64,000 nt of DNA, from NCBI GenBank assembly GCA_000004985.1, contig GG738846.1; one strand, 5' to 3'. Below, piece after piece: positions 4,108 to 63,420 of this stretch; within the stretch, counting starts at the first letter, position 1; each line of letters opens with the position of its first letter. The stretch comes from Naegleria gruberi (Eukaryota). A program made the position numbers and the translations under genes. Under the pieces are notes generated by a model. It was given only the letters and a program-made list of their open reading frames with translations. It ran no database searches and was not told the origin of the DNA.

Positions 4108-4690
4108 AATAAATTAGTGAGAGCGTTTTCAATTATTATTAATTGTTGAGGAGAGGAGGTGACAATGTAAAATACACAATGATGACGATAAATTAATATT
4201 GGGTGTGTTAGATGCAATAGAGTTATTCTCTGATAGAGACCTGTCAACCACTTTCTCGCGCTTCTAATGGTCAAGATGCTTGATCTATTCAGTTTTTTTG
4301 TTGGAGAATTAATACGGAAGGCAACTTGTCAACATTAGTGTGCGACAACATTGATACATTTGGAAAGTATTTTGGCTTGTACAAATGATTAAACAGAGGT
4401 CAATATGTGTATGATAATAAGTATTTAAAATAAATATTTAAGAAAGGTTTACAATACACGTAATGGTTTTTTAAATGTAATAATCAATAAAATATTTTTA
4501 TCAAAATTAACAAATTAGAGGCCTTAATTTGAGGGATAAAGCGAAAGACATAATATCCTTTCCATTTTTGTACATGTTGTGTTTTTAGATACCAGGTACC
4601 TGTGACATTTCAGGAATTGTTTTGAAATGTTTAAATTACAATTTTGTAAACCAAAACATTAGTTTTTGAATTTTTTGAAAATCTAATTGT

Positions 4691-5448: not shown

Positions 5449-7070
5449 TTAAATTTTTGAAAAACTCTTAATAGGAAAACTAGAACTCGAGTAAGACAAT
5501 GAATTGTCTTTCTTTTTTTTGGATCCTGTCATGAAGGTATTATCAGAATCTTTGGCAATATCATCTTTTTTTGAAACATCACCCACCAAAATCTTTTCCT
5601 TCACATACTTTTGCATTTCTGTAGAAAATGGTTCGAGATGGCTGGAGCTATAACTACTCATATATGAGGCATTGTATACAAAGGAGTCATCCACGTGTGT
5701 ATCACCCAAAAAATCCATAGATTCAGAAAGATGACTTGCATTCAGGAATGATTCATCGCTCGTTCTTTTTTGTTTATCACTCTTTAAGGATTTTGCTGGA
5801 CTACCAAAATCTTTCAAACTTGAAGATGAATAGAGTGGACTCTTGGTCGGATTTTCATGATCAAAATTTGATTTCTCTGAATTAACAGAAATTGTGCTAT
5901 GACTCAAATGTTGTGAATTTGTTGGGACCGACTTCTTACTCGATTGGGAGCTATTTAAACGAGAGGATTGAGAACTACCTAGTCTTATTGGAGAATTAGA
6001 GATTGTTGGACTGATCATGGCTGAATATCTATTGCTATGAGTATCACTTCTGTTGGCAGATTTTTCCAGTAAACTAGAGTTTTGACCAGTTTTAGGTTGC
6101 AAGCTACTTATATTGTTTGTCATACTCTCGTTAACTTGGCTAGTGTTGGAAAATTTTGTTGAGCTTGTCAGGTTATTTTTAAGGGATGAAGTCATGTTAG
6201 AAGCTGAGCTTGATGAGGTTCTACTACTTGGATTTTGAGTGAAGAAGTTATTGGATGCGTTTAATGGAGGTTGACGAGGTTGTGGCTCTTGTTCGATATC
6301 ATGGAAATTAGATTGGTCTTGCTTTTCGGAGTGTTGAATTGATTCTTTTGAGTTGAACGAATCAACCTTATTACATACTTCTTCCAATTTTTTCAAAATG
6401 AGTTCAATAGTTTCAGATTGACTTTGAATGATTTGTTTCATTTCTCTACTTTCTACTAGTAGCATATCAATTTTTTTATCCTTTTCGAAAAAGATGGAGC
6501 TTTCTACTGACTTGTCTGTCATGAATGATGTTTCATTGTTAGCTGTGTTATTAAATTGTTCCTTCATAGATTCCTCTGTCATTCCAGTAGAATATGGAGA
6601 ATAAAAAGGTGGATAGAATGGAAAAAATTGATAAGGATTAGGATAGATAGGATATTGAGGTTCCATTTGTAATTGTCTTGTTGATTTTTTTTGTTTCGTT
6701 GTTGACTGTGGTGGGAGAGCAGTCTTTTGGTAAGTAGCACTAGGGTGAAAACCTTTGGAAGCTGGTTGAGTTTGGTGTTTAGCATGTCTGTTGTTATTGG
6801 ATTGAGTAGGACATTGTTCCTCATTATCACTCTCCTCCGAAGGATTATAAAAATGTTGGAGAATGTTTCCCCTCACTTGGTTGGCTATTGTAGAAGACGG
6901 CTTTGAAGAAGGTTTTTCTTTTTTCATTTGGTTGTGTTGCTCCATGTGCATTACCTCATACGCATCACTGTTATCCTCTTCCCCAAACAATTGTTGATCA
7001 ACTTGTTCACTAGAGAAGTAGGAAGAAAGGTTTTGTCTTGGACCGGTGTTGTGTTTTTGGTGGGGTTTCA
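5449..7070 (-). CDS. Ser/Thr/Asn-rich low-complexity protein of unknown function, starting MKPHQKHNTG.
   Basis: This is a 540-aa ORF with an ATG at 7070. It is S/T/N-rich with a short coiled-coil near the C-terminus. The longer ORF-track start at 7140 is not an ATG. Confidence 0.45.
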
Positions 7071-9005: not shown

Positions 9006-11078
9006 ATGAAAGGACAGAGGTCTGTGGCCCTTGCACTTGGTGGACGTTATCTGATAAGCAAAAAGACAATGTGTTGGAAGTTTGGAAAATCTATCAAGTC
9101 TACTACCTCTTCAAAAATTAAAAATCATTCGCTTGTTGCTTGCTATCACTGTAAAAAATACAACCCTTCTACCGGAACTAAATACCACCAATATTTCGGA
9201 TCATCTCTAGAGGCAGGTGTTAATTTATTGAAAAGAAAAGAAATTGAATATTTGACAAAATTACAAATTAGAAGCTATTCAACAAATAATTTATATAGTG
9301 ATACTTTTCTTTTTGATGCAGAAACATTTGCTACTAATTTAAGAATTTATTTTGAAGATCCTCCTCTTGAATTGCATGAAGAAGAAAGTGATGCTCCAGT
9401 TGAGCATCACCAACTTCCCAACGAAGAGGCACACGATAATGATATTGTTTCCCTGACAATATCAGACATTATGCCATATCAACCACATGAATTTTTCACC
9501 CAGAAGCTAAGGTACTACATTGATCATAGCTTGGAAAAAATCAAGTCACAACCAGTAGGTGTAAAGAATGCAGATGCATTTGCTTTTTTTATTAATGGAG
9601 GAAAGGGCGTTGGAAAGACTAGAAATACGATTGAAACTGTCGAAGAAATGACATTAGAATATGGTGATAGGTTTTCTAAATTAATGTATTTGTATGCTCC
9701 ATTTCTGAATATGTGCCCTCTTGCAGAGGAAGAGGAAATGTTTGGAAGAGAAGAGTTACTTAATTTTCAAAAATCAAAGAAGCTAATTACAGCACGTATG
9801 ATTTATTCATATTTTACACAATCTATTGATTCATCTGAAGTTAGATCGTATAGAGACTTTCTTGAACACTGTTATCATTTCATTCCAGACAATATCAGTC
9901 ATGTTTCAGAAATTATTAAGTATGATTTGGATCTTGATAATGATGAAAGTCTTGGTCTTTTCATAGTAATGGATGATTGTGATGAATTATTACGAGTTAA
10001 ATTTGAAAATGTAATTACTCACACACCATATAGTTTATTATTGAGAATGTACAATGAATTACCAGGGGTTTTTACAGATAGACAAAATACAACATTTATT
10101 CCAATTATGGTAGGAAAAGATATTGAAGGAATGACTCAGGATTGGATACATAAGCTTGGACCTACACGTCCAACATATTCTGGAAGCTCATATCAAAAAA
10201 ATGAAACATTTACCGTTTGCCAATTTCCACTTTTAAACCAAGATCAAGTTGAAAATATAGTTGATAACATGTTTGACCGAAAAGGACAAATTCCAATAGA
10301 AGATGAGGAAGGAACAGGACAGTTTATTGATAAGGAAAATTGGCGAGATTGCAAAAGTTTTTTAACAGCTCTCGCAATGATAGGTGGGCATCCACTTGCT
10401 CTTGAACATTTCTTACTCTTTATTGCTTCAGTACAATATTTACACAGAGACTTTTTTAATTTTCAATATGCCGTAGAGAAAACCAAATATGAGCTTAGAA
10501 AAACCTACGATCTTACAGAGTTAGGTCTTAAATGCACTGATAATCAAATAGAAAAGATTATTATTAGTCTTTTATCTGATAGACAAATACTTGAGGTGAC
10601 AGGGTACAAAAATTATGAGTTTACAAATTTTTACACTTTCATGAATTCAGGAATAATATTTCCAGTTATCAAACCGGAAGAAGACGAAGTTATAGAATAT
10701 AATAACTTTTATAATTTAGAAAGGGTTGTTAATGTACCCTTTATATTCCTTGATGAGTTAATTGAGCAAATTCCAGAGGAAAGCAAGAGTAAGGAAATTT
10801 TTAGAAATCTTGCTACCGCTCTCAAGAATCTTTTAGATTTACAATTATTAGAGGAACCAATACCTAGAAAGCAAATCAAGATTATCAACACCAAGTACTA
10901 TGATGCCATGAAAGAAGTCAAGAGAAGAGTTAGGAAACCACCAGAAACAGATATTATTCCAGTTTTTTGGAGAAATGTACCTGCAGAAACACCAGAATTC
11001 TATTCCAGTTATGTTAGACATCTTTTGTCTTGCTATTTCCATAACTGGAAGGTTGTATTAGACAAAAATTTAAAGTAA
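9006..11078 (+). CDS. Lineage-specific P-loop NTPase (Walker A motif GGKGVGKT). The function is unknown and the true start may be the internal Met near 9072.
   Basis: This is a long intronless ORF of 690 aa. It has a Walker-A motif FINGGKGVGKTRN, followed by a DD(C)DE-like acidic box, IVMDDCDELL. I recognised no ortholog. Confidence 0.5.
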   Translation: MKGQRSVALALGGRYLISKKTMCWKFGKSIKSTTSSKIKNHSLVACYHCKKYNPSTGTKYHQYFGSSLEAGVNLLKRKEIEYLTKLQIRSYSTNNLYSDTFLFDAETFATNLRIYFEDPPLELHEEESDAPVEHHQLPNEEAHDNDIVSLTISDIMPYQPHEFFTQKLRYYIDHSLEKIKSQPVGVKNADAFAFFINGGKGVGKTRNTIETVEEMTLEYGDRFSKLMYLYAPFLNMCPLAEEEEMFGREELLNFQKSKKLITARMIYSYFTQSIDSSEVRSYRDFLEHCYHFIPDNISHVSEIIKYDLDLDNDESLGLFIVMDDCDELLRVKFENVITHTPYSLLLRMYNELPGVFTDRQNTTFIPIMVGKDIEGMTQDWIHKLGPTRPTYSGSSYQKNETFTVCQFPLLNQDQVENIVDNMFDRKGQIPIEDEEGTGQFIDKENWRDCKSFLTALAMIGGHPLALEHFLLFIASVQYLHRDFFNFQYAVEKTKYELRKTYDLTELGLKCTDNQIEKIIISLLSDRQILEVTGYKNYEFTNFYTFMNSGIIFPVIKPEEDEVIEYNNFYNLERVVNVPFIFLDELIEQIPEESKSKEIFRNLATALKNLLDLQLLEEPIPRKQIKIINTKYYDAMKEVKRRVRKPPETDIIPVFWRNVPAETPEFYSSYVRHLLSCYFHNWKVVLDKNLK

Positions 11079-11086
11079 TAATATGA

Positions 11087-12052
11087 TTGATGGAGAGTAA
11101 TAGCAGAAAGATGCTGAGGGTTGAAAAGTTCATCTACAACAAATTCTTAATAAAAAAAATGTTGAATTTTAATTCTACTGTGGTCAATAATGAAATTATT
11201 CCTGCCGTTCAAAAGGTTGTACCAATAAAAGTGGCAGCCCCAAAACTTCCGAACGCTAAAATACGAGTTAGAATTTCTGATATTATCATTATTATTGGGT
11301 GGCTTGTTTGGATCGCCTTTTGTACATGGTATACATATACTGTCGTGGATAACTATCTTCAAATGCAAAATACTCCAACCACCTCTTTATCATTCAATGA
11401 GACAACAACCTTAGAGTTTCCGGCTATAACTATTTGTAACTATAATGGAAGAGCAGGAAGCTCTTGTCCAGAATGTGATCTGAACTTGGTGCGCATATTT
11501 CGATTAACAGTAACTGGAATAACTTCACCAATTACTGATGGAAACATTAGAGCTGAAAAAACTCAAGTTCTCGACAATGTATATTATTCATGTTACAAAA
11601 TTAATAATGATAAGAGTAACTTGTTTTTAGCAAAAAAGAAAGGTATTTCAGGCTCAATATCTTTTTTATTTGAAATACCAACAGGAAGTTCCTTGTCAAG
11701 AAATGGGTTGCAAGTGACATTCCATGAACCAGGAGCCACACCATCTATTTATCAAGAAACTCAATTCGCCGCCCCTGGAGTTGAAAATTACTTTTCCCTT
11801 ACAAAAGTTGTAAGAACTGTATTGGATATGAATTATGATACAAATTCTGCTGTGAGAAATGTTACTTTTGATTCAGTTGTTTCCACTATTGCTGTTACTG
11901 ATATTCCATCCAATAATGTTCTTGTAACTGTTACGTATGGTACTATGAGTGTGTATAATATCGATGAAGTTCTTACAAACACCATTCCTTCTTTATTGGG
12001 TGATGTTGCGGGTATGATTGGATTAGTAAGTAGTTTCAATTTAATTTTGTAA
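11087..12052 (+). CDS. ENaC/degenerin-like channel subunit with a small extracellular domain. A candidate 59-nt intron starts at 12024 (GTAAGT), and the 3' end, including TM2 somewhere between 12053 and about 12220, is unresolved.
   Basis: TM1 (IIIIIGWLVWIAFCTWYTYTV) is followed by the DEG/ENaC post-TM1 signature FPAITICN. There are several conserved Cys residues, and a pre-TM2-like LLGDVAGMIGL sits at the ORF end, immediately followed by GTAAGT. Downstream frames contain FGKSS.../...FLQLFEL pieces that resemble the G-x-S selectivity-filter TM2, but I could not join them cleanly. Confidence 0.4.
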   Translation: MMESNSRKMLRVEKFIYNKFLIKKMLNFNSTVVNNEIIPAVQKVVPIKVAAPKLPNAKIRVRISDIIIIIGWLVWIAFCTWYTYTVVDNYLQMQNTPTTSLSFNETTTLEFPAITICNYNGRAGSSCPECDLNLVRIFRLTVTGITSPITDGNIRAEKTQVLDNVYYSCYKINNDKSNLFLAKKKGISGSISFLFEIPTGSSLSRNGLQVTFHEPGATPSIYQETQFAAPGVENYFSLTKVVRTVLDMNYDTNSAVRNVTFDSVVSTIAVTDIPSNNVLVTVTYGTMSVYNIDEVLTNTIPSLLGDVAGMIGLVSSFNLIL

Positions 12053-13929: not shown

Positions 13930-15453
13930 ATGATACAATGGCATCCATTAAAATCTATGATAGATAAAAACATCTCACAAATTGAACAAAAGAGACACGA
14001 CATAAATAATCAAATAGAAATTGACAGCTCCGATGAGACTGATGAAAATTCTTTGGGTACTCCTCTATTCGGAAATGTTCTCGTAGACTTTTTACTGATG
14101 ACTAACAATCAAAAAAATGTTTATGACGAATTTATATTAATGCTAAAGAAGCCCACACTACTGAATGAAGGTCTGGGAGATTATATTTTTATTCCATTCA
14201 TTTTTACTTTAGGTTTTAAATATCAGGAGATTATTATCTACTCCATTATTGAATTATTTTGTAAATTTAGGAAAAAATTAATTATTCAATTAATTGAAGA
14301 CTTTTTAAACTTCATGTCTCAAAGACCAAAAATTGATGCTTTGAAACAATTATTTAGAAAATTATGTTACAAAATTAATGATACAACTTTACTTGTAAAG
14401 TTTGATACGTATGAAAATATTAAAATAGGGAAATCAGAAGAACAATTAAAAGAGTTAGACATTTTTGGATTGTACAAAACTAAAACTATGAAAAGAAATA
14501 GTACCATGATGGAAGCAAGTGATCACCAACAGAAAACAACTCCTGAAGTAGAGTCAACTCTTCCAGAGCCATCACCAAAGAAATCTAAATTGATTGAGGA
14601 GGCTATTCCTCATACATCAATAGAATTATCATCAGACCAAAGAAAGGATATTTTGAAACTGAAGAAGCTTATTGAAAAAGCATCTAATCAAAAATCGATC
14701 AACATTCAATCAATACTATCAATTTTGAATAGTGCTCTCTGTCTTAAACAAATGGAAATGATATTTGAAGAATTGTCAATAGATAATCTCAATGATGGAT
14801 TGCTATTTCACATTATACAAGGTCTTTTTTCAAAAAGTGGACTAACAACTAATAATAACCATATTGACACATGTGATCAATGCTCCTCTATTATACAGCA
14901 TTTAATTCAACCAAAATTGATTAATATGAAGCAAAAGGCCTCTAGACATTTATTTTCAAGCATTCAACAAGTTTGTTGTAATCAAAAATTTAGTAATATG
15001 ATTATTGAACTAATAATTCTCAACCTTTTAAGAGAAAAATCATTATCTGTAGATCAAATTGAGATAATTACTAGAATATTAGATAAAATAATTGATGTTG
15101 AAGGGAAGGGGTATTTGTTCAAACTGATTATTGAAAATATTTCCAACAAACAAATCAAGTGGAATGAAGAAACAACCATTAATATTCTAAATAGGGTTAT
15201 GGAAACAAAAAATTTAATATCAAAAATTGATATTAATTTACTGGAGCAACTCATTACAGAATTTGAAGAGATTATTCCCCAATATTCGAAATCTTTAAAG
15301 TTTGCTCTTTTAGTTTCTAATTTTTTAACAATAGTTGGGCAAACACATATCATAAAGTCTCACTACCCATCAATCAAAGATATTATTGGACAACTAGACA
15401 ATAAGATGAAAGAGAATATTGAGAAAAAGTTTGAAAATTTTCAAACAAAGTGA
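13930..15453 (+). CDS. Hypothetical alpha-helical protein of 507 aa.
   Basis: A long ORF with an ATG in an A-rich context (aaaaaaaATG). Leu/Ile-rich helical repeats. No homolog recognised. Confidence 0.5.
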   Translation: MIQWHPLKSMIDKNISQIEQKRHDINNQIEIDSSDETDENSLGTPLFGNVLVDFLLMTNNQKNVYDEFILMLKKPTLLNEGLGDYIFIPFIFTLGFKYQEIIIYSIIELFCKFRKKLIIQLIEDFLNFMSQRPKIDALKQLFRKLCYKINDTTLLVKFDTYENIKIGKSEEQLKELDIFGLYKTKTMKRNSTMMEASDHQQKTTPEVESTLPEPSPKKSKLIEEAIPHTSIELSSDQRKDILKLKKLIEKASNQKSINIQSILSILNSALCLKQMEMIFEELSIDNLNDGLLFHIIQGLFSKSGLTTNNNHIDTCDQCSSIIQHLIQPKLINMKQKASRHLFSSIQQVCCNQKFSNMIIELIILNLLREKSLSVDQIEIITRILDKIIDVEGKGYLFKLIIENISNKQIKWNEETTINILNRVMETKNLISKIDINLLEQLITEFEEIIPQYSKSLKFALLVSNFLTIVGQTHIIKSHYPSIKDIIGQLDNKMKENIEKKFENFQTK

Positions 15454-15506
15454 CTTCCCGCCTTTTGTAGTTAAGTTGGTTCAAAAACAAGTACAAAAAA
15501 ATAAAG

Positions 15507-18500
15507 ATGGTACGTCTTTTGCATTTTAGCTTGTCTGATTTAAACCTCATACAATACGTTGATAAATATTGTATCCATTATTAATTGATCCGATCATTTT
15601 AGAAACAACTCTTCACTGTTACTCAAGAAACAAACGGCAGAGGACCTGTTGTTTTTAGCTGGCAGAAGAGTGGTAACTACCTTGCTTGTGTAGGTTCCTA
15701 CAGAAGAGTACATATTTTCGACAGGCAAGGAAATTTATATCATCAAATATCCTTAGAAGATTCTGGAAAAGTTATTGCTTTGGACTGGGATTATAGTGAT
15801 GAAACTCTTGCCATAATGCAAGAAGGTTCAAGTAAGGTACCTCTCTTTCATATTAATACAAAAAAGGAGGAAAATATTGAAACAAGTATGAAAGAGTTGA
15901 GTTTTATGAGGTGGGCCATTGCTGGACCTTACTTGGCTATCGGAAGTGTAAAAGGAACATTGCTAATCTACAATAAGAAAATTAGCAAGTACGTCCCTAT
16001 CAAGGGTAAACATACAAAAAAGATTACAACAGGTTCTTGGAATGCTCAAAATGTTCTTGCTCTTGGTTCTGAAGATATGCAAATAACTATCAGTGATATT
16101 AATGGTGACAATATCAAACAAAAACCAGCCAAATCTGAACCAAAAACAATGGAATTTTTGAGGGTAAAGAAGAGAAATTCAAAGGATACAACTGTTGCTG
16201 CAATAGTAGGAGGAAATTTTTGGATGTATGATTATGAAGATGAAACAGAACCGAAACCAACAGAACTTGGATTTAGTGATGATTATGGTAAAATGGTTTG
16301 CTTTAAATCATTTGGTGACGGATATTTGCTCCTTGGTTTCGATAAGGGTTATGTTGTGATTGCCTCAACACATGCTGAAGAAATTGGTAATGAAGTTAAT
16401 TCTTGTAAAGTCCATGATTCTGAATTGAAGAATATTACCTATTGTGATGCTTTGAAGAAGGGTGCCTCAATAGGAGAAAATTGTGTCAAAGTATTTGATT
16501 TATCAGATTTAGCAACATTTGATACAAACACTGTAGATAGATATGAATTAGACAATGAATATGGAGCTCTGAATAAGGTACAGTGGACAGAAGATGGACA
16601 AATATTGACAGTGTCCTCAAACAATGGTAATTTGTACAATTTTTTGACCAGTATTCCAGCATTGAACGACAACCATGGTAAAAATGTATTAATGTTAGTT
16701 TCTCTCAGAGAACTGATGATTAAGGATGAAGTTAATGAAAAAGTAGTTGCCAGGTTTTCAATTGATATTGAACCAAGTTTTGTGGCACTTGGTCCAGAAC
16801 ATGTTGCTGTTGGAATGAATAATAGAGTTTGGTATTATAGAGTTGAAAATAGTTCTGCAACATTAATATCCACAAGAGAATATTTAGGAACAGTTGAAAA
16901 AGTATTTGTTGGATTCGATTACGCTGCTGTATTGTCAGGTGGTAAGATTACGCTTCATCTTATTGAGAATACAGAAGATGAAAAATGGAAAGGAAGAGAA
17001 GAAAAACACTTTCCTGAAAAGGATGATGGGTCAGTTATTACAACGTTAACTATGGCTCCAGATTTCCTTATCTATGGAACATCTAGAGGCACAATATGTT
17101 ACTTTTCTCTGGATGATTGGTCAACAGTGAATGAGTTTAGACATGATGTTGGTATTTCTTCTGTATTTACTAATATTATTGGTACTAGATTGGTATTTAT
17201 TGATGAAACAAATGCAGGATTTTTATATAGTCCTGTGGATGATTCACTTGTGGGAATTGAGTCTTTCCCTAGCTCTGTTGATAAGGTGTTGTGGGATCAG
17301 GCAGATCAAAATGTATTCGTTGTTTGCGATAGTAAGAAGTTCACAACATATGTTTATAGTCACACAACAAGATGGGGTCCAAAAGTGTTCAGTGTTAAAT
17401 TAGATAGTGACACACCAACAAGAACAATTAGACCAGAAGGATTCATGCCAATATTTTTAAATAATGGAAAAGTTTGCTGCCAAATGAAAAATGGTTCAAT
17501 AGCCCACCTTATCTTGGCTTCTCATTCTGATTATGATTTGAAAACATTTGAAGATAAGAAGAGAGCATTTAACCAAGCAATTTCCTTGCTTAGATTAGAG
17601 GACGCCTGGGCTATTGCTCTCGATTTGAATCAAGAGGTTTTTTGGAATAGATTGAAGGATGTAGCTGTTGACAATTTGGAATTGGAATTAGCCATGAAGG
17701 TTTATAGATTGAAAGGAAACTCATCAATGGTTATGGCACTTAACGAGCTGATAAAATTAGATGAAATTAATTTGATAATTGGAAACCTGGCCATGATATC
17801 TGGTGATTTTACAGATGCAGAGTCAAAATTCCTTCAATCAACGCAACCAATCAAAGCTTTGGAAATGAGAAGGGATTTAATGAATTGGGATAGAGCTCTT
17901 CAACTTGCTCAAAATCTTGATCCCAACCAAATACCTGTAATTTCGAGGGAATACGCCAATCAGTTGGAACTTAAAGGAGAATATCAAAGAGCATACGATT
18001 TATATCAAAGAGCTGTATTAGACCCTAACCCAGAAAATAGTTCCCACAATCAAATATGTAATGAAGGTCTAACTAGAATAACAATCAGATTAGGTGATCT
18101 CAGAAAAGGATTCGAATTGGCAATGAAGAGTAAGAATAAGAAGCTCTGTAGAGAATGTGCTTTAATATTTGAGGAACTATCTCAGTTCGATGACGCTGCA
18201 GCTCTTTATGAAGAAGCAGAAATGTATGAAAAATCTGCAGAAGTGTATATTCAAAATAAGAGCTACACAAAGGTAACAAACTTGATGAAATCAAAGAATA
18301 TTATGAATCCTAGACTTCATCTCCAATTCGCCAAAGCAAAGGAATTAGAAGGAAAATATGAAGAGGCAGCAAATTCTTACGAAAAAGCAGGTGATATCAA
18401 CAGTGTTATTAATATTAATTTGAGATATTTGAATAATATTCCAAAGGCTATTGATCTGGTAAAGAAAACCAAATCAACTGATGGAGCCAATATGATTGCC

Positions 18501-19679
18501 AGCTATTGTAAAGAAAAAGGAAATTACAAGTCATCAATTGAATTCTTGATAATGGCTGAAAAAGTTGATGAAGCATTTGAAATTGCAAAGGCTCATGATG
18601 AAATGGACACTTATGCTAAAATTGTTGGTGAAGGAGCAGACAAGTCTGAATACTTGAGCATTGCTAAGTATTATGAGTCGAAAGTTGCCCTTGACAGAGC
18701 TGCTGATTATTATCTGAAATGTGAAGAGTACACTACCGCTCTTACTCTCTACATTCAGTGTTCATCTAGACTGAAACAAGACTCTAAAGAAATGGAAAAT
18801 GTTATTGACAAGGCAATTGATGTTGTTGCTGCTGCAAAGAATGACAATCTAACTCACTCCTTGATTGACTTCTTGATGGGTCAAGTTGATAATGTTCCAA
18901 AAGATCCAAAACATGTTTTCAGGCTCTATATGGCTCTTGGTAACTTTAAACAAGCTGCAAGTACCGCTCTAGTTATTGCCAAACAAGAACAAGAAATTGG
19001 TAATTATCAAATTGCACATTCAATCCTCTTTGATACAGTAAGACAATTAGAGAAAAAAGGTCATCACGTGCAATTTGAACTGAGAGAAAGTTTGAATTTA
19101 CTCCACTCCTACTTGATTGTAAAATACCTTTCGAAAATGCAAGAACAAACCATTGCCTCAAGAATGTTACTCCGTATTACTAAGAATATCAGCAAATTCC
19201 CTCATCACATTGTACCAATTTTAACTTCTTCAGTTTTGCTTTGTTACAGATCTGGTCTTAAAAAATCAGCTTTTGAAAATGCCACAGTTCTTGTTCGACC
19301 AGAGCATCAAAATTTGATACCAGCCGAAAAGAAAAAGACAATAGTACAACTTGTAAGAAAGCGAAAGGCTTATGAAGACGAACCTGAACCAACTTCAGGA
19401 TGCCCAATTTGTTCTGCTCCACTTTCAGACTCCTCATTATACTGTGAGCATTGTATGAATAATGTACCAATGTGTATTTCTTCTGGTTTACACATGGTTT
19501 TAGATGACTGGTGTCAATGTCCTCAATGTCAATTCTCCTCAAGACATTCTCACTTTATCAAAATGGTTGACAGCTTGGGCAATAAGTGTCCAATGTGTGC
19601 TCAGACAGTAAATCCAGAAAATGTAAACAAATTAACAATTGAACAAGCAAAGATTGTTGTAGACAAATATCTAAAATAA
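15507..19679 (+). CDS. WDR19: Intraflagellar transport protein 144 (IFT-A subunit WDR19). Exon 1 is the ATG alone (15507..15509). Intron 15510..15602 is 93 nt (GTACGT...TTTTAG). Exon 2 is 15603..19679.
   Basis: The spliced N-terminus MKQLFTVTQETNGRGPVVFSWQKSGNYLACVG... matches human WDR19 ([33 protein letters not shown]). Internal matches include EPSFVALGPEHVAVGMNNRVWYY and ISKFPHHIVPILTSSVLLCYRSGLKKSAF. The C-terminal Cys-rich zinc-finger-like tail is conserved. The protein is 1359 aa against 1342 aa in human. Confidence 0.85.
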
Positions 19680-19749: not shown

Positions 19750-22251
19750 ATGCCACCAAAAAAACGTGGAGAACTCTCATCAAAAGAGAGAGCAACAATT
19801 GCAAAGTCAACAAAGAGCATCAGTCTCGCATCTAACCCTTTCGAAAATATTCAACAAAGTAGAAAAAAGGCCATTATGGGAGCAAATAACACCCAAGTTC
19901 GACAAACAAGCAAGGCCAGATCAAATGACATCAACGTTAGAAAAGATACATTGCTGAAGGATTTTTGGAAGCAACAAAAACCTTCAAACAAATTTGTGGA
20001 TAAGAGACAATTAGCTTTTGATAAAACCCTCAACAAGGTGGATAAGAAGAGAAAGAAGTTTCAAATCGGAGATGATGATGAAGATGAAATGGATACTAAT
20101 TTAAAAAGAACAAAATTATCTTCATTCTCCACTCTAGGTGATATCGATGAAAGTATTGACAAGGAATTATTTAGGGATGATTACCAAACTGATGATATTG
20201 ATTCTAGATATAGTACAAAGGATGAAGTATCAGTCCTTAGAAATTTGAAAGGTATAGGAAGAGGAGAAGTTTCTTCAACCTTTGGTTTTGAACAACAAAT
20301 AGAGAGAAAATTATCCAAGAGAGAGAGAATGAATTTAAGAATTAGAGGATTTAAAGAACGTAAAATGGAACAAAAGATGGATAAGGAAGATAACTTGAAC
20401 ATGATAGAACTTTTGGATAACGATGAAGATCTTATGGAATTACTCAAATCTGATTCCACAAAGAAGGAAACCTCGAACACCAATAAGCAAGACACCAAAA
20501 AATCTCTCGATTATGATAAATTCTTGGACATGATCAAGAAGGGAGAAGATATTGATTTGACTTCTATTAGTGAAAAGAAGGAGGGTCAACAATTATTTGA
20601 AAAACAAACTAAACAGGAGGAAGGAGAAAGTTTAGAAGAGACTGAGTCAAGTGATGAAAAAGAAACTGAAGACACAAGTGAATCCTATGCACAAGATAGC
20701 TTCATAGATGATACTATTATGAGTGACGAAAATGAAGAAGAAAATGAAGACATTATCAGTGAAGAAAAGGACGAAAATAATGCTGAAGAAATCGAAGAAG
20801 ATTCTGCATCCTCCCAACCAGAGGAAGAAGACATTGAAAGTGAACAAGAAAATGATCAAGATGGTGAAAATTCCTATATCCAAGATAGTTTTATCAATGA
20901 TGAACCAATTTCTGGTGATGAAGAAGAGCAATTTGAAGAAGAAGAAGGTTTGGAAACAACAGAAAAAGATTTAGAAGAACTTTCACAATTAATTTCTAAC
21001 AATTCAGACAAGATACAAGAAAAATTGATTGAAACCATTGAAAAGAATGGACAGCCAGAAAATGAAAAACTATTCTTTACTATTGTCACGTTGTTGGTAG
21101 AGCAAGTAGGATTTGGAGAGTGGCTCTCCTCAAAGAGCAAAATTAATTTCAATCTATTGGTGAATGATCTTACTCAAGTTTTATTCAAATTAACTACCAA
21201 ACAGCCTAATACTGCCCATGATGTGTTCCACATGTTCTTATTGAGCACTTTCAATAAGTATGAAGTTTTAGAAGTTCCAAATTTGGGTGAATTAATTGTT
21301 TTAAAGATGATTACTACAGTCTATCCTCTTAAGGAAAGAATCGAAAGTCCAATACTTTCTCTCACCAATTTATTAATCCATCTCTATTTGGAAAAATCGA
21401 AACAATTCTTAACATCTCCCCTCAATATGCCAGCCATTCTCTTTTTAACATCTCTTTCAATCATTATTGACAAGGAATGCACTTTCTACTCCCCAGATGT
21501 TGTCAATACTCTCAAAGAAATTATAGCAAGAAGTGAAAAGAAACAAAAGAGTAACAAGAAAAAGACTGAGAAGAAGCCAAACTTGTTCAGATCAATTTAT
21601 GACTCAAATGAGGAATGTCAATGTTTTGAATGGGCAACACATTTGCTTTCCATCTATAGTCAACACTTGGAAAAGAATTTCTCAAAGAAAGTATCAACAA
21701 ATGATCACTTTAAGAAACTTTTGGATAGTGAAGGATTTTCCAGTATTAGTAGAGACCATATTGAAAACTTTAATATCATATTCGAGGGTATTAAATTGAA
21801 TGAAAAACCAATTCAAATCGATGAAGTTAAATCAGAAATTAATTACAAAACAAAGAAACCAAAAGCAATCGCTCAGTTTGAGCCACTCCTATTTGGTGAT
21901 AAGAATGGATCAATTGATTCCATGAAGAGTAAATACACTGATGAAAATCCTGAGCAAACTAAAATCAAGACATTAAAGAAGAAGATTGCAAAAGAAAAAC
22001 GTAAGGCCATATCAGAATTGAGAAAGGACAATCAATTTATCAGATCTGCCAGGGAACAAGTGGCAGCTGAAGAAGCACACCAAAGAAAGCAAAAGTATAA
22101 GAATGTCATTGATACTCTCAGAAGTGAAAGAATGGAACAAAATCAAATCGATAGAAAGAATAGAGATATTGAAAAGATGAAGAAGGATATGAGAACAACC
22201 AGAAAGAATGTCGGAAAACAATCAGTAAGTGCTGTTTCCAAAAATAAATAA
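19750..22251 (+). CDS. NOP14: Nucleolar protein Nop14 (SSU processome), intronless.
   Basis: The N-terminus has the NPFE motif (SLASNPFENI) and a basic K/R-rich region. The middle is acidic and Ser-rich. The C-terminus ELRKDNQFIRSAREQVAAEE matches the human NOP14 C-terminus (EIRKDNQFLARMQ...). Confidence 0.75.
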   Translation: MPPKKRGELSSKERATIAKSTKSISLASNPFENIQQSRKKAIMGANNTQVRQTSKARSNDINVRKDTLLKDFWKQQKPSNKFVDKRQLAFDKTLNKVDKKRKKFQIGDDDEDEMDTNLKRTKLSSFSTLGDIDESIDKELFRDDYQTDDIDSRYSTKDEVSVLRNLKGIGRGEVSSTFGFEQQIERKLSKRERMNLRIRGFKERKMEQKMDKEDNLNMIELLDNDEDLMELLKSDSTKKETSNTNKQDTKKSLDYDKFLDMIKKGEDIDLTSISEKKEGQQLFEKQTKQEEGESLEETESSDEKETEDTSESYAQDSFIDDTIMSDENEEENEDIISEEKDENNAEEIEEDSASSQPEEEDIESEQENDQDGENSYIQDSFINDEPISGDEEEQFEEEEGLETTEKDLEELSQLISNNSDKIQEKLIETIEKNGQPENEKLFFTIVTLLVEQVGFGEWLSSKSKINFNLLVNDLTQVLFKLTTKQPNTAHDVFHMFLLSTFNKYEVLEVPNLGELIVLKMITTVYPLKERIESPILSLTNLLIHLYLEKSKQFLTSPLNMPAILFLTSLSIIIDKECTFYSPDVVNTLKEIIARSEKKQKSNKKKTEKKPNLFRSIYDSNEECQCFEWATHLLSIYSQHLEKNFSKKVSTNDHFKKLLDSEGFSSISRDHIENFNIIFEGIKLNEKPIQIDEVKSEINYKTKKPKAIAQFEPLLFGDKNGSIDSMKSKYTDENPEQTKIKTLKKKIAKEKRKAISELRKDNQFIRSAREQVAAEEAHQRKQKYKNVIDTLRSERMEQNQIDRKNRDIEKMKKDMRTTRKNVGKQSVSAVSKNK

Positions 22252-22407
22252 AAATAAAGGAGTGTTTATTACTAAATAAGTAATACTTGAATTGCAGCCG
22301 ATTGTGAATTGTTTACATTGAGTAAGGTTTGAGGTTAAGAAGTGAGAGGCTGAAGACAAGTTTCCAAAATTAAAACAGTAAAGGTAAACATTAAAAATTA
22401 AATAAAA

Positions 22408-22944
22408 ATGGTCTCATCAACCTCTCATCAACATGAACAAGAATTCAATCAATATTTAAAATATAAGGAAATGATGATTCTTCGGGATACTAAATGTTTA
22501 CACACTGATATAACAATCGATGAATTTTTAACTGCTCATCATGAATTCAATAACTCATCATCACTAATTGAAAACAAAAATTTCATATTCAAACAAGCGA
22601 ATTATGTAAAATACTTGCTCTATCATACAAATAATGGATTTGAATTAACAGAGAAGGAAATTAAATCAAAATTATTACAATTTACAGAAAATGAATTAAA
22701 AGCTGAAATACATCCGAAAGATCTATTCATAAAATCATCACCCTATCACAACTTGTACAAGTACTACTTTATCGGAAATTTAAATTCGCCCAACACAGAT
22801 ATTGACTGTGCAATGGACCAATTCCATTCTCTCAATAGATTCTTTCTTACTTGTTTGCTATTTACTACACCTCTCATTATTAAAAATTACGGAATGACAA
22901 GAGTTTTGAATACTATTGTGAGGAGATTTAATATTAAATTTTAA
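22408..22944 (+). CDS. Hypothetical small protein of 178 aa.
   Basis: An ORF with an ATG in an A-rich context, sitting in a gene-sized gap between Nop14 and the next gene. No homology recognised. Confidence 0.35.
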   Translation: MVSSTSHQHEQEFNQYLKYKEMMILRDTKCLHTDITIDEFLTAHHEFNNSSSLIENKNFIFKQANYVKYLLYHTNNGFELTEKEIKSKLLQFTENELKAEIHPKDLFIKSSPYHNLYKYYFIGNLNSPNTDIDCAMDQFHSLNRFFLTCLLFTTPLIIKNYGMTRVLNTIVRRFNIKF

Positions 22945-23093
22945 TGTAATTTGTTCATCACTAACAATCATTTCACTAATTTGATGATTTTATATTTCTT
23001 CTCGAATCATATCTAACAATAATTATTGAATGAGAGAAAATTAACTTTGGGTATGACTTGCAAATATTCAGCAACAATTTTGAAATTTCGGGT

Positions 23094-24614
23094 ATGAAAA
23101 AAATGTTTACCCCAAAAAACATCAAACATTTTGTTTCCACCACTGGTGTTGCCACTTTATCAAGAAGACCATGTTTTGTTGCTCTCAGTAACCATACAAC
23201 AACTCTCTTTAATATAAACAATAATTCATCTTGTTTTGTTAGAGAATTTTCAACCAATTCTAGTGGCAATTACCAACAAGAAGAAGGAAACAATAAGAAT
23301 TTTTACAATAGTAAAACTCTTGCTCTCGGACTTGTTGGAGGTTTGCTTTCCTCTATTGCTGCCTATTATTATTTCGATAATAATAGAAATAATGTAGATG
23401 ATAATTTACACACTCTCCTTGCTCAAGCATTATCTGCTCAAGAAAATTCAACCTTCGAAGAACAAGAAAGAACCAAAAAGAATGTTAATGCATTGCTACA
23501 ACATAATACTCCAATTTATAGAGTTGTTTTGACAGGAGGACCTTGTGCTGGTAAATCGAGTGCCATGACCAAGTTGAGAGAAAGATTACAAAATTTGGGA
23601 TTTCAAGTTTTTATTATTCCAGAAGCAGCTACCTTGTTAATGACTGGTGGTGCCAAAGTTACTGATAATTCTTCTGTTGAAGATGTTTTAGCTTTTGAAT
23701 CTTCTTTAATTAAAACTCAAATGGCTATTGAGGATAATTTCCAAGAAATTGCAAGAGTAAGCAAAAAACCGACTATTTTACTTTGTGATAGAGGTACTTT
23801 GGATCCAAAGGCTTACATGGCTGATGATTTATGGCAAGCATTGATGGATATGAATGGTTGGTCAATTCCAATGCTTCGTGATAAGAGATATGATTGTGTA
23901 ATCCATCTTGTTACAACTGCAATTGGTGCTGAAAAATTCTACACTTTGGAAAATAATACTGTCAGAACTGAAACTATTGAACAAGCAAGAGAGTTGGATC
24001 ATAGGCTCAGAGCTTCATACATTGGCCATTCTCAATTGTATATTGTTGATAATGCTGTGAATAGTTTTGATGAAAAATTGCAAAAAGTGTATAATATTCT
24101 TTCTCATCAAATTGGTATTCCAAGAGCTAAATCATCTAGAAGAAGATTCTTGTTAAAACCAATGGAAAAGGTAGACATGAATTTGAGACATGAAGTTATT
24201 GATTTGGAACAAATCTTTATTCCAACAGGAAACGAAAAGGACGTAACAAGAATTGTAAAACGTGGTCAAAATGGCGTCTTTACTTATTCCTATCATTCCA
24301 CTCAAACTATTGAAGATGGTTTGGAAAAGATTGAAGCTCGTCCAATCTCTGCCAGAACATACGTAAATCTTTCTTCTCAAGCTGACAAGTCTAGAATGCC
24401 AATTCTTAAAAAGATTTACAGTTTTGTTTATATGAATCACTACTTTGAACTTAATCACTACCTCAATGGCAAGGGTAAGGGTACCACTATTCTTACAGTG
24501 GAAGCAGTTGCAGGACAAGAAGTTTCTATTCCTCCATTTTTGGAACCATACATTTTGGAAGAAGTTACTGATAACAACAAGCTCTCTTCTTATGAATATG
24601 CTCTTAAGAATTAA
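23094..24614 (+). CDS. P-loop NTPase of the AAA_28 / NadR-like (TTD14-like) family, with a predicted N-terminal mitochondrial-type presequence.
   Basis: It has a Walker A motif VVLTGGPCAGKSS followed by ...IIPEAATLL... and a DRGTLD motif, typical of AAA_28 family kinases/NTPases. The first ATG is at 23094; the ORF-track start at 23058 is a TTG. Confidence 0.55.
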   Translation: MKKMFTPKNIKHFVSTTGVATLSRRPCFVALSNHTTTLFNINNNSSCFVREFSTNSSGNYQQEEGNNKNFYNSKTLALGLVGGLLSSIAAYYYFDNNRNNVDDNLHTLLAQALSAQENSTFEEQERTKKNVNALLQHNTPIYRVVLTGGPCAGKSSAMTKLRERLQNLGFQVFIIPEAATLLMTGGAKVTDNSSVEDVLAFESSLIKTQMAIEDNFQEIARVSKKPTILLCDRGTLDPKAYMADDLWQALMDMNGWSIPMLRDKRYDCVIHLVTTAIGAEKFYTLENNTVRTETIEQARELDHRLRASYIGHSQLYIVDNAVNSFDEKLQKVYNILSHQIGIPRAKSSRRRFLLKPMEKVDMNLRHEVIDLEQIFIPTGNEKDVTRIVKRGQNGVFTYSYHSTQTIEDGLEKIEARPISARTYVNLSSQADKSRMPILKKIYSFVYMNHYFELNHYLNGKGKGTTILTVEAVAGQEVSIPPFLEPYILEEVTDNNKLSSYEYALKN

Positions 24615-24837
24615 GATGATTTATTCAATAAAAACTTTAGCTTTATGAAATTAATACGTTTTTGTCAACTATTATCATTATTTAACCTTTTTAAACCGAT
24701 AATATAAATAAAACACTTTTAATGTCTGTTCTGTACTAATAGTTGTAGTGCCAAAATAGTTGACAAACATTTACTTTTTGTGTGAAATATTTTTATTAAG
24801 CTAAGCTAATATTGTATTTATGCAATAAGAAGTAGAA

Positions 24838-25776
24838 TTAAAATTGGTTCAACTTCTTAGCAGCAAATGCTGGTAAATGGAAGCTTGCTGTGTGCAACTT
24901 GTCAGTGTAATATTTCAAGCTGTCCTTAGTCTTTTCATCCAACTTGTTGTACCAAGATTCAATTCTTCTAGGAACACTTGGATCCATATCTGGATTGGTT
25001 GAACAAACCAAGAATCCCAACAAACCACCAGGATAGGTAGGAGTGGAAACATAGGCATACTTTGCTTGATCAAAAACTTGTTCCAAATCCTTCTTGAGAT
25101 TTGAAATAAAGTCCAAATGCAACCACAAAGTTTCACTTTGTTGGGAGAAAATTCCATTAGGAACAAGAGCTTCTCTACAGGTAATGAAGAAATCCTTACT
25201 GAAGAGTACTTGAGCACACTCAATAGGATCAGAACAGTCATTAATGATAACATCAAAGTAATTCTTGTGTTGTTTCAAGTAAGCAGCACCATCAGCATTA
25301 ATAACCTTAACACGTGGATCTTCTAAACCACAGGACATTGTTGGAAGGAATTTCTTGGCAGCTTCGATAACTTCCTTATCAATTTCACACAAGACAACTT
25401 CTTCAATGGATGAATGTTTGAGAACTTCTCTAACACAACCACCATCACCACCTAAATTGTTTTAAAAAATTAGTAAAAAAATATATGAACTATTTCACAT
25501 ACCTCCGATAATACAGACACGCTTTGGTTCGTGACCAACAGTAACAAGTGGCAAGTGGCAAGCCATTTCTTGATAGGCACATTCATCTTTCTCTGTAGCT
25601 TGAATTGCTCCATCAAGAGCAAGAACGTTTCCATAACTTTCAGATTCAAAAACTAAAACATCTTGGAACTCTGACTTTTTGTGATATAAAACTTGTTTAA
25701 CTTTGAGATTTTTAGATTCGCCATCCCAAAGGCCGTTAGATTCTTCAGTAAACCATCCTTCTTTCCAAGCGTTCAT
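24838..25776 (-). CDS. SRM: Spermidine synthase. Exons 25503..25776 and 24838..25451, with a 51-nt intron 25452..25502 (GTATGT...TACTAAT...TTTAG).
   Basis: The exon join reconstitutes the SAM-binding motif ...RVCIIGG|GDGGCVREVL (the human sequence is LIIGGGDGGVLREV). The N-terminus MNAWKEGWFTEE... parallels human EGWFRETCSLW. The product is 295 aa. Confidence 0.8.
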
Positions 25777-25989
25777 TTAGATCACCAATTGAGTGAGTTG
25801 TTTTTAAAGTTTTTGTGTGTAATTAAAAAAGTGTTTTTTTTTCAATCGAGAAGAAATAGTTAGTCTAATATGTGGCTCTATTTGAACTGTTTTCGAATCA
25901 CCACACACGACAATAAAACAGCAGCAGCATCTTCTTGCGTCCACAACAAAGATTGTTCAAGTTAGTTTCACTGTTGGAGTCTGGCTAAA

Positions 25990-26060
25990 TTACTTACGGC
26001 CAATTTTACAATAATTGGTTGAATCGGTTCATTTTGTTGGCCAATGATTGGCTCGTTCTC
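25990..26060. promoter_or_regulatory. Cluster of CCAAT boxes, including a palindromic inverted pair GGCCAATGATTGGC, in the divergent intergenic region between spermidine synthase (-) and INTS11 (+).
   Basis: GGCCAAT is at about 25999. GCCAAT-G-ATTGGC (arms are exact reverse complements) is at about 26039-26052. CAATTGGCCAT is near 26190. This is motif inspection only. Confidence 0.25.
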
Positions 26061-26446
26061 TTTTCGCACAGAATCCCATTAGCCATTACAACCAGTTGAG
26101 AAGTGGTTAATTTGAAAATTCCACGATGTAAAAACAACTTTATACCGAAACCAATGAATTGTAAAGTGGGGCGAGTGAAAATATGGTACACAATTGGCCA
26201 TTTGTTTCAAATGAGTGGATATTTCCTTTCAAATTAACACGGATCCTTGTGCTCTTTGTAAAATGTATTTCTCACTTTAACGAATCTACAGTTTGTACAA
26301 TTTACAGTAAGGTGTATAAGTCCTCTATATTGGTATATTCTCTAATGTTGTTGTTATCAAAATTGAATGAATGAAATCTTAAAACCTGTTCAATCAGTTT
26401 GTTTGTTATTAAACTATAATAAAAATTAAATAAAAAGTATTAAAAA

Positions 26447-28366
26447 ATGAGTTCATCCGCATCAATACAACTGCCCAATCCTAACAGTTCCTCTCATATC
26501 AAAGTTGTTCCTCTCGGAGCTGGGCAAGATGTCGGAAGAAGTTGTGTCATTGTTACAATTGGAAGAAAAACAATCATGTTTGATTGTGGTATGCATATGG
26601 GATATAATGATGAGAGAAGATTTCCTGATTTTAAATTCATCTCAAAAAATGGACAATTCACTCAAACAATTGATTGTGTGATTATTTCTCACTTTCATCT
26701 TGATCATTGTGGTGCTTTGCCATATTTTACAGAAGTTTGTGGTTATGATGGTCCGATCTATATGACTTATCCAACTAAAGCTATTGCTCCAATCCTGTTA
26801 GAGGATTTTCGTAGAGTGATGGTAGATAGAAAAGGCGATAATTTAAATCAAGGATTTTTCTCTTCGGAAGATGTAAAAAATTGTATCAAGAAGGTTCAAC
26901 CACTCAATTTACACCAAACAATAATTCTAGATGATGAATTGGAAATTAAACCATATTATGCTGGACATGTTTTAGGAGCAGCAATGTTTTACGTCAAAGA
27001 TTTGGCAACTGGGGCTAGTGTTGTTTATACAGGCGATTATAACATGACTGCTGACAGACATTTGGGAAGTGCTACAATTGATAGATGCAGGCCTGATTTA
27101 TTAATTACAGAAACTACATATGCTACCACAATAAGAGATTCAAAAAGCAGTAGAGAACGTGATTTTTGTAAACAAGTGTATGATACCGTTGTAAATAAGA
27201 AAGGAAAAGTCTTGATTCCAGTATTTGCGTTGGGAAGAGTCCAAGAATTATGTATTCTATTAGAAACGTATTGGGAACGAAAAAATCTTGGAAAGAGTGT
27301 TCCCATTTACTTTTCTGCTGGTATGGTAGAAAAAGCCAACTATTACTATCAACTTTATATTAATTGGACAAATGAGAAAATCAAAACTACACTCTTTGAC
27401 CAAAAGCGAAATCTCTTCAATTTCAGTAATATACAATCATTTGAAAGATTTTTAATGGATAATCCTGGACCTATGGTTTTATTTGCAACTCCTGGTATGT
27501 TACATGCTGGTATGTCTTTGGAGGTTTTCAAGAAATGGGCTCCTGGTGAAAATAACAAGGTAATTTTGCCTGGTTATTGTGTTGAAGGAACTGTAGGAAA
27601 TAAGGTTTTACGTAATAAGGATTTAAAATCTTCTAAAATAGAAATTGACTCTAGGACAGTTATTGATATGAGATGTGAGGTAAAAGCCATTTCATTCAGT
27701 GCACACGCAGATGCTAAAGGTATTTTACAATTGATTAGAACTGCTCAACCAAAGAATGTCATGTTAGTACATGGAGAACGAGACAAGATGGCGTTTTTCA
27801 AAAAGAAAATTGAATCTGAATTTAAAATTCCTTGTTTTGATCCACCTAATGGAGGTACAATCAAAATCAAAACAACATCACAAGTCGCTTCAGTCAATGT
27901 GAGTCTGAACTTGTTGAAAAGGACACTCTCCTCTACACCTCTTCCACATGATACTGAAACGATGAAACAAGTAGTAGCAGAACCAAAAAAGAAGAGAATA
28001 GAAGGTATTTTAATATCAAAATCGAATGGATTTTCAAATCTGCCCGATCTCTCACTTCTTGAACCGAGCCAGGCAGCAAGAGAATTGGGACTGAGACAAC
28101 ACAAACTAAGCTTTAGTAGAAGGATATCAACCAATTTAGGATATGATGTATTAAGATCTGTACTCTCAATAATGGTTAATCAATTTGGAAAGGAATTTGT
28201 AAATTATAATCCTCCTTCCCCAATAACTTTTAAGAGTATCAAAATTTCATTCGAAGAAAGCACCCAATCTCTACATGTAAATTGGCTTCTTACTGACGAA
28301 GTGGAAGGTGAGAGAATTTGTCAATTATTAGAAAATCACCTCTCTTCTTTAAAGCTCAACCAATAA
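26447..28366 (+). CDS. INTS11: Integrator complex subunit 11 (INTS11, CPSF73-like metallo-beta-lactamase/beta-CASP endonuclease), intronless.
   Basis: The protein is near-colinear with human INTS11: VPLGAGQDVGRSC, GMHMGYNDERRFPDF, HFHLDHCGALP, TGDYNMTADRHLGSA, ITETTYATTIRDSK, PVFALGRVQELCILLE. The Q-D-V signature distinguishes it from CPSF73 (Q-E-V). Confidence 0.85.
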   Translation: MSSSASIQLPNPNSSSHIKVVPLGAGQDVGRSCVIVTIGRKTIMFDCGMHMGYNDERRFPDFKFISKNGQFTQTIDCVIISHFHLDHCGALPYFTEVCGYDGPIYMTYPTKAIAPILLEDFRRVMVDRKGDNLNQGFFSSEDVKNCIKKVQPLNLHQTIILDDELEIKPYYAGHVLGAAMFYVKDLATGASVVYTGDYNMTADRHLGSATIDRCRPDLLITETTYATTIRDSKSSRERDFCKQVYDTVVNKKGKVLIPVFALGRVQELCILLETYWERKNLGKSVPIYFSAGMVEKANYYYQLYINWTNEKIKTTLFDQKRNLFNFSNIQSFERFLMDNPGPMVLFATPGMLHAGMSLEVFKKWAPGENNKVILPGYCVEGTVGNKVLRNKDLKSSKIEIDSRTVIDMRCEVKAISFSAHADAKGILQLIRTAQPKNVMLVHGERDKMAFFKKKIESEFKIPCFDPPNGGTIKIKTTSQVASVNVSLNLLKRTLSSTPLPHDTETMKQVVAEPKKKRIEGILISKSNGFSNLPDLSLLEPSQAARELGLRQHKLSFSRRISTNLGYDVLRSVLSIMVNQFGKEFVNYNPPSPITFKSIKISFEESTQSLHVNWLLTDEVEGERICQLLENHLSSLKLNQ

Positions 28367-28457
28367 AACCATCACACCACAACAGCCACGTAATTTTTCT
28401 ACCAACAATAATTTAAAAATAATGCAATAACATCATCACCAACACAATAACATCATC

Positions 28458-30311: not shown

Positions 30312-30336
30312 AAGAATCCATAACATAAGGAGTTTT

Positions 30337-62184: not shown

Positions 62185-63420
62185 TCAGATTTTGAACGTT
62201 TGGTAAATATTTTCCTTATTGAGTTCAGTTAGAGGAGACAATCCACTTGTCATATCAACCGATTTTGTTTGTTTTTGTTTTTCAAATTCTGTCTTTTCTT
62301 TAAGGAAAGCCAATCTTTCTTTTTCTAATTGTTTTTCCTTTTCTTCTAATTTTTCTTCCTTCTTCTTTATGAATTGTTCTCTTTTTTCTAATGCCTTTTC
62401 TTTTTCCTTGAGGATCTTGTAGCGTTGTTTGATATAGGTATCGAAAATATTAAATCTCACAATAGATGTTTCACAAATTTCAACAATGGAAATTCTTTTT
62501 TTTGGCTTCAATTAAATGTAAGAGGTTGGTAGTTGAAACACTATACTTACATCTACACAAATCATTCTATTGATTAATTCAGAAACCTCCTTACTGTAAC
62601 AAGATGGAATTGGATTGAATTTTCCAGCTGCAATCTTCTTTTCAAGTAACACAGCATTTGGAGCTTTAAAAGGAGGCTCCAAGGTGCACAACTCATACAA
62701 AATACATCCCAGAGACCAGATATCACAACTTTCGTCATACCCTTGATCACTCAATTGATCTGACAATAATTCAGGAGGCATATAGTAAGGTGTTCCAAGT
62801 CTTGTGTGAGCAAACTTTGATTGGTCCGATAAAATTCTTGCCAATCCAAAATCACCCAACTTTACATTCAAATCTTTATCCAAGAAAATATTTCCTGGTT
62901 TCAAATCTCTATGAATAACTTTTCCACTCTTTCTTGTGTGACATTCTTTTAATGCACAACAAACTTCGGAAAAGATTTTCAGAACTGTTGCTTCTTCAAT
63001 TTTACCAGATGTTTTCTTAATGGATTGTATAAATTTACCCAAATCTCCACCCTCACAGCACTCCATCAAAATGTACAATTTTCTCTTGTTTTTATCAATG
63101 TACCTATTAAAATATTTAACTATATTCTTGTTTTCCAAATCTTTGAGAATGTTAACCTCTAAATAAATGTATGTTTTTTATCACCCTCAAGTCTCTTACT
63201 TACCAGTGACTATTAATTGCTTTTCCTTCTCCGACATTCGGCCATAATCAATCTCTTTCCACACATATATCCTATGATCCTTCTTGGATTTAACCTTATA
63301 CTTTTTATAGGGATAGAATTATAGTTAAAATTTATGGAAATGATTTAAACCTACCACACTTCCAAAGCTACCATGCCCTAATTGTTCTACAACATCAAAA
63401 TCGGCTAATCCTGTCTCCAT
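62185..63420 (-). CDS. NEK: NIMA-related kinase (NEK2-like). Four exons: 63355..63420, 63204..63300, 62551..63158 and 62185..62505. Introns: 63301..63354 (54 nt), 63159..63203 (45 nt) and 62506..62550 (45 nt).
   Basis: The spliced product METGLADFDVVEQLGHGSFGSV|YKVKSKKDHRIYVWKEIDYGRMSEKEKQLIVT|EVNILKDLENKNIVKYFNRYIDKNKRKLYILMECCEGGDL...HRDLKPGNIFLD...DFGLARIL...GTPYYMPPE... is colinear with human NEK2. After the last intron (in frame, contains a stop) a coiled-coil tail follows (KEKEKALEKREQFIKKKEEKLEEKEKQLEKERLAF), as in the NEK2 leucine-zipper/coiled coil. Confidence 0.75.

Follow-up and report, generated by a model that had tools for sequence, protein, structure and literature searches.

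We describe an intron placed directly after the start codon of the IFT144/WDR19 gene of Naegleria gruberi, in a stretch of 64,000 nucleotides (nt) from contig GG738846.1 (assembly GCA_000004985.1), the whole of which is called the window here. As judged from the sequence, it is very probably a constitutive U2-type (GT-AG) spliceosomal intron of phase 0 between codons 1 and 2. It spans positions 15510 to 15602 (93 nt, GTACGT to TTTTAG), and the coordinates given in a preliminary description of the same DNA proved exact. Apart from this intron, the coding region of ~4 kb is intron-free. That description had made exon 1 "just the ATG", which is right for the coding part; the exon as a whole must also include the 5′ untranslated region (UTR).

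Anatomy of the IFT144 5′ end

The features at the 5′ end of the gene are as follows.

15451–15453, + strand: stop codon TGA of the upstream gene, which ends open reading frame (ORF) 13930–15453 and bounds the IFT144 5′ region on its upstream side.
15454–15506, + strand: intergenic spacer of 53 nt, presumably the IFT144 5′ UTR and perhaps also the 3′ end of the upstream gene.
15507–15509, + strand: start codon ATG, the whole coding part of exon 1 (from the sequence).
15510–15602, + strand: predicted intron of 93 nt, phase 0, GT-AG, GTACGT...CATTTTAG, GC content 29% (from the sequence and splice scoring).
15603–19679, + strand: exon 2, with IFT144/WDR19 codons 2 to 1359 (KQLFTV...DKYLK) and the stop codon TAA at 19677–19679 (from the ORF and Pfam).

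The identity of the gene, proposed earlier as IFT144/WDR19, was borne out by Pfam. The matches were Beta-prop_WDR19_1st (PF23389; 2e-111, ORF residues 16 to 342, all 325 profile positions covered), Beta-prop_WDR19_2nd (PF15911; 7e-88), and an IF140/IFT172 TPR domain (5e-19), which is the IFT144/WDR19 architecture of two WDR19-type beta-propellers followed by TPR repeats. Identity to metazoan WDR19 was 40 to 43%, and the homology search listed IFT144 matches up to ~1040 amino acids (aa).

The ORF opens at 15603 with AAA CAA CTC TTC ACT GTT (K Q L F T V) and runs uninterrupted for 1358 codons (15603–19676) to its TAA. The in-frame codon directly 5′ of it is TAG (15600–15602), and its first in-frame ATG lies at 15816, corresponding to Met72 of the spliced protein. 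Between the stop of the upstream gene and the ORF there is only one ATG, at 15507–15509; read through the intron, it gives 25 codons and then TAA (15582–15584), the other in-frame stop of the intron being the TAG at 15600–15602. The unspliced ORF is thus left without a plausible start, as first described. The same account had cited a Met at 15780 whose use would delete about 60 residues, and this needs correction: 15780 is TTG (Leu), listed as a start by an ORF tool that works with bacterial start codons, and a start at the real ATG (15816) would lose 71 residues.

Conservation across the N-terminus was as strong as in the body of the protein. Against the metagenomic locus L002, the closest relative in a 14-sequence identity matrix (58%), residues 2 to 71 were 59% identical and residues 72 to 600 were 57% identical, with comparable ratios in other homologues. 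The region 5′ of Met72 is, by this comparison, coding. The start M-K/R-x-L/I/V-F (MKELF, MKRVF, MKRIF, MRKLF, and MGRQLF) is shared by homologues of widely separated lineages, with coral, fish, and mite orthologues among those compared, so that, given the conservation of residues 2 to 71, the coding sequence (CDS) would enter at 15603 as codon 2 and would need its Met from elsewhere. Splicing out 15510–15602 restores the frame and yields a predicted product of 1359 residues with the N-terminus MKQLFTV, collinear with the MKELF, MKRVF, and MKRIF of homologues. This is the only splice model that gives a Met-initiated protein with the conserved N-terminus.

In the mechanism that we propose, exon 1 would carry a short 5′ UTR and the AUG, and splicing would remove 15510–15602 and join the AUG to AAA (Lys2) for translation of the 1359-residue protein. 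Retention of the intron would end translation after 25 codons from the same AUG, a dead end that would mark the transcript as defective, so that IFT144 would be made only from spliced mRNA. Introns that contain stops and have a length divisible by three permit surveillance of retention in other protists. A separate function for the intron would be unnecessary as an explanation.

The spacer upstream carries AATAAA at 15500–15505 (+ strand), immediately 5′ of the IFT144 ATG and 47 nt past the upstream stop. If this is the poly(A) signal of the neighbor, cleavage would take place inside IFT144 exon 1 or the intron, and both transcription units would overlap there. At 11076–11092 (+ strand), the consecutive same-strand ORFs 9006–11078 and 11087–12052 (ATG at 11090) lie ~11 nt apart; they may be two very closely packed genes or a single gene interrupted by a tiny intron.

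Splice signals and intron content

Splice signals were compared with a local set of 18 introns with strong donors, inferred from ORF junctions in the window, and position weight matrices (PWMs) were built from these. The window is very gene-dense (GC content, 30 to 36%), with short introns and with most genes lacking any. The 18 local introns are 38 to 57 nt long (median, 44.5 nt). Their donors are mostly GTAAGT or GTATGT, with one GTACGT (43539, minus strand) and one GTAAGA, and 17 of the 18 have the core GTA.GT; among the acceptors, T-rich ones ending in TAG or CAG predominate. Two additional, less certain candidates measure 72 and 74 nt. This ORF-based census agrees with the earlier statement that the 93-nt intron, at about twice the local median, is the longest definable in the window.

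The donor GTACGT matches the local GTA(A/T/C)GT core and has a PWM score of 5.8, within the top 2.5% of window GT sites. The acceptor CATTTTAG has a T-rich tract before its AG and scores 7.0, mid-range for the local set and within the top 1.7% of window AG sites. Of the 26 possible donor/acceptor pairs in which the ATG stays in frame with the ORF, this one has the best combined score. The other pairs score far lower; the second best (15533–15658, sum of 8.0) would remove conserved residues. An internal GTATCCAT at 15571 scores −1.4, and no in-frame product is possible from it with the 15602 acceptor. Two branch-like YTRAY motifs precede the 3′ end, TTAAT by 18 nt (A at 15584) and TTGAT by 14 nt (A at 15588); of the 18 local introns, only 10 contain any YTRAY.

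The string ATGGTAHGT occurs three times in the window against 1.08 expected, which is not significant by itself, so the argument rests on context and not on the motif. For the full arrangement, defined as the motif 30 to 120 nt upstream of an AG that directly adjoins the opening conserved codon of a 4-kb ORF lacking a start Met, the probability of chance occurrence is roughly 0.002 (estimated by hand from base frequencies).

The preliminary description had also suggested that the intron might house regulatory elements, and its content lends this no support, either as an embedded RNA or as a repeated regulatory motif. The predicted fold of the 93 nt has a minimum free energy of −6.2 kcal/mol (z = +1.11), and 177 of 200 shuffled sequences fold at least as well. 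An Rfam scan of the intron at a permissive threshold returned a lone, meaningless match (E = 0.11; 17.9 bits, where the gathering score is 100). A k-mer comparison of the IFT144 5′ region with the whole window gave nothing beyond chance 12-mers, and Rfam and tRNA scans of the whole window were empty. Two candidates were rejected: an intron-hosted structured RNA (small nucleolar RNA, microRNA, or other), for want of a stable fold or RNA-family match, and a U12-type intron, for which /RTATCCTT at the 5′ end and a TCCTTRAY branch site near the 3′ end are expected and which is ruled out by the donor GTACGTCT.

Two further introns in the window lie close to the 5′ end of a gene. One, in WDR90/POC16, is 42 nt long (48151–48192, + strand; region 48138–48192; GTATGT...TTTATAG) and falls inside codon 4; its length is a multiple of three and it is stop-free, so the ORF runs straight through it. 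The spliced N-terminus would be MLNN-AWQQPYVNL, which we take to be similar to the start of human WDR90. The other, at 63203 (minus strand), lies ~11 codons past the first in-frame Met.

Relatives, public annotation, and competing readings

A metagenome scan with alignment of N-termini returned nine loci. L002/L003 and L005 come from a single sample (JGI 3300037860/JAESGV01; ~38% GC) as two near-identical variants, and their proteins are 57 to 58% identical to Naegleria IFT144. In each, exactly this site holds a phase-0 intron of 30 nt, ATG^GTATGA...CAG^AAAGAACTC, giving M^KELF (^, splice junction); the full junction reads ...CACCATG^GTATGAACG(T/C)TCTTTTTCTGACATT(AG/TC)CAG^AAAGAACTCTTT. The position and phase (ATG^GT...AG^AAR) are shared with Naegleria, as are a length that is a multiple of three and the presence of in-frame stops, whereas the length (30 versus 93 nt) and donor (GTATGA versus GTACGT) differ. 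L002 has three more introns, at 4171–4206, 4391–4426, and 6250–6280 (36, 36, and 31 nt), all lacking in the uninterrupted Naegleria sequence. A CTAAC branch motif is present in the first two but not, as an exact match, in the third. The metagenome gene caller broke the L002 gene at these three internal introns.

The deposited IFT144 model (EFC50007.1/XP_002682751.1) is a "hypothetical protein NAEGRDRAFT_29690, partial" of 1357 aa. It corresponds exactly to window positions 15606–19676 and begins at Gln3 (QLFTV...), without Met1 and Lys2; the ATG exon and the intron are therefore missing from public annotation. Neither the spliced 1359-aa product nor the versions starting at Met72, Met96, and Met102 had an exact match in the public protein collection, and a literature search for the IFT144 locus tag gave no match. 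With the start-codon intron, the partial model would gain the start codon and Lys2 that it lacks, which is the sole practical value of the intron, and the case illustrates a failure mode of gene callers, namely, a coding first exon of three bases.

Nine other ORF products of the window, including EFC50244.1, EFC50008.1, and EFC50012.1, are identical to deposited proteins of N. gruberi NEG-M from a 1.0-Mb scaffold. A ciliate origin or an alternative genetic code, considered for the AT-richness and tiny introns, was ruled out by these exact matches and by the TAA at which the IFT144 ORF ends. Three plain ATG-to-stop products, all on the + strand, are absent from the public protein collection (13930–15450, unknown protein; 26447–28363, Integrator subunit 11; and 46163–48037, LRR), so the deposited models must differ from simple ORFs there. 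An RNA sequencing dataset for N. gruberi (PRJEB23822) is cited in PMC6142364.

Several observations weigh against the intron as drawn. Its donor score of 5.8 is among the lowest in the local set (range, 5.5 to 13.3), and its 93 nt, about twice the median, fall outside the 38- to 57-nt span of the well-supported local introns. Those introns were themselves derived from ORF junctions, and our assumptions therefore enter the scoring matrix, and the branch motif is weakly defined in the N. gruberi genome. L002 and L005, being near-identical and from one metagenome, amount to roughly one independent lineage. Lastly, the distant protist homologues (L001, L004, L006 to L009, L018, and L019) have no intron at the start-codon site: reading continues unbroken past the ATG in L001, L004, and L006 to L009, and the first intron of two stramenopile-type loci is located around codon 35.

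The foremost competitor dispenses with the intron altogether and has a collinear mRNA translated from the AUG at 15816 (Met72) into an N-terminally truncated IFT144. An in-frame ATG does exist there, and the absence of an intron is the common condition among window genes. We consider this reading very unlikely. Residues 2 to 71, which it would discard, are conserved as strongly as the remainder and open the first WDR19 beta-propeller, whose Pfam profile sets in at ORF residue 16. A collinear mRNA from upstream would moreover meet the AUG at 15507 first and stop after 25 codons, the relatives have the matching ATG^GT...AG^AAR layout, and the Met72 product is not among the deposited models.

A shorter intron of 45 nt (15558–15602) would use the donor GTTGAT with the same acceptor and give the protein a 16-residue N-terminal extension, MVRLLHFSLSDLNLIQY-KQLF. 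This solution is in frame and stop-free, and its length is typical of local introns, but its donor scores −5.3 against 5.8 for GTACGT and lacks the GTA.GT core present in 17 of the 18 local introns. The extension is found in no homologue, all of which begin M-K/R-x-L-F, and the matching stretch of L002 has a stop at its third codon; we regard it as highly improbable. Equally hard to credit is a different start codon, brought to the 15602 acceptor by an unrecognized upstream exon overlapping the neighbor or by a trans-spliced leader: the 5′ end of the transcript is left undefined by the mere 53 nt from the upstream stop to the ATG, but homologues require only one Met before Lys2, ATG^GTACGT is at precisely the required place, and L002 and L005 have the same layout. 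Spliced-leader trans-splicing is not known to occur in Naegleria.

Outside IFT144, the Integrator subunit 11 homologue of the window is 83% identical to that of Naegleria lovaniensis and 81% identical to that of Willaertia magna. Gene order around it (10-kb flanks, L012/L013, compared with window positions 22000–30400) is not kept in these two species, which have in common DCP2 and C2CD3 upstream of Integrator subunit 11 and ELO downstream.

Comparison with known introns

The intron at 15510–15602 is most likely an inherited 5′-terminal intron, common to N. gruberi and the nearest relatives found here and kept while the rest of the 4-kb CDS is intron-free. N. gruberi IFT144 has one intron, at its extreme 5′ end, and L002 has four, a pattern that fits 3′-biased intron loss. 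The preliminary description had read start-proximal introns as a hallmark of reverse-transcriptase-mediated loss; the three extra introns of L002 agree with this without proving it, and they may instead have been gained in the L002 lineage. Retention of introns toward the 5′ end in intron-poor genomes has been ascribed to such 3′-biased loss (reviewed in PMC3488318). The Naegleria gene resembles that pattern in having one intron at the extreme 5′ end of a long CDS, and other window introns are 5′-proximal too. It departs from it in that N. gruberi is only moderately intron-poor and some window introns lie near 3′ ends (e.g., 53704, minus strand).

Metazoan WDR19 has a phase-0 intron one codon further on, after codon 2 (MK^R; ATGAAR^GTA...), as seen in the coral Oculina (ATGAAG^GTAATT; L015:1501–1512), the fish Aldrovandia (ATGAAG^GTAAAG; L016:301–312), and the mite Oppiella (ATGAAA^GTAAGA...TTTTAG^AGAATATTC; 56 nt, ending TTTTAG^AGA; L017:301–366). 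The gene, the phase, and the location at the extreme 5′ end of the CDS are the same as in Naegleria; the metazoan intron differs in lying 3 nt downstream, with Lys2 in exon 1, whereas in Naegleria Lys2 is in exon 2. Animal WDR19 genes are rich in introns (the human gene has about one for every 37 codons), so proximity by chance is not small; at this human density, it is roughly 5 to 10%. The offset may stem from the sliding, by 3 nt, of one ancient common intron or from independent origin, and it offers a modest case in which to test intron sliding against parallel gain.

A bolder reading would make the Naegleria intron a very old 5′-terminal relic, dating possibly to the last common ancestor of eukaryotes and homologous to the metazoan codon-2 intron displaced by one codon, and/or an intron kept for the expression of a flagellum-specific gene in an extremely tight locus (53 nt, AATAAA). 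We think this improbable; if the relic part were true, it would be a rare documented case of intron sliding.

The closest known class is that of start-codon introns, which follow the ATG without a gap. In animals, fungi, and plants, phase-0 introns are reported to be in excess at this site, with positions conserved between human and fly (Nielsen & Wernersson 2006, PMC1626468); the taxa covered were vertebrates, arthropods, fungi, and plants, and not Heterolobosea, and short, lysine-rich proteins, ribosomal ones in particular, are overrepresented among the hosts of the class (PMC1626468). A tendency of first introns to be longer is reported as a general property of eukaryotic genes (PMC2518113). 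Both are established phenomena, and the IFT144 intron belongs to the start-codon class by position and phase. Like other members, it has its GT (15510) directly after the ATG in phase 0, a conserved host protein, and a position kept between relatives; unlike the typical host, which is short, lysine-rich, and often ribosomal, IFT144 is a ciliary protein of 1359 residues. As such, the intron is ordinary, opening no new question and revealing no new mechanism, and it lengthens the list of start-codon introns by one, hosted here by a large heterolobosean ciliary protein.

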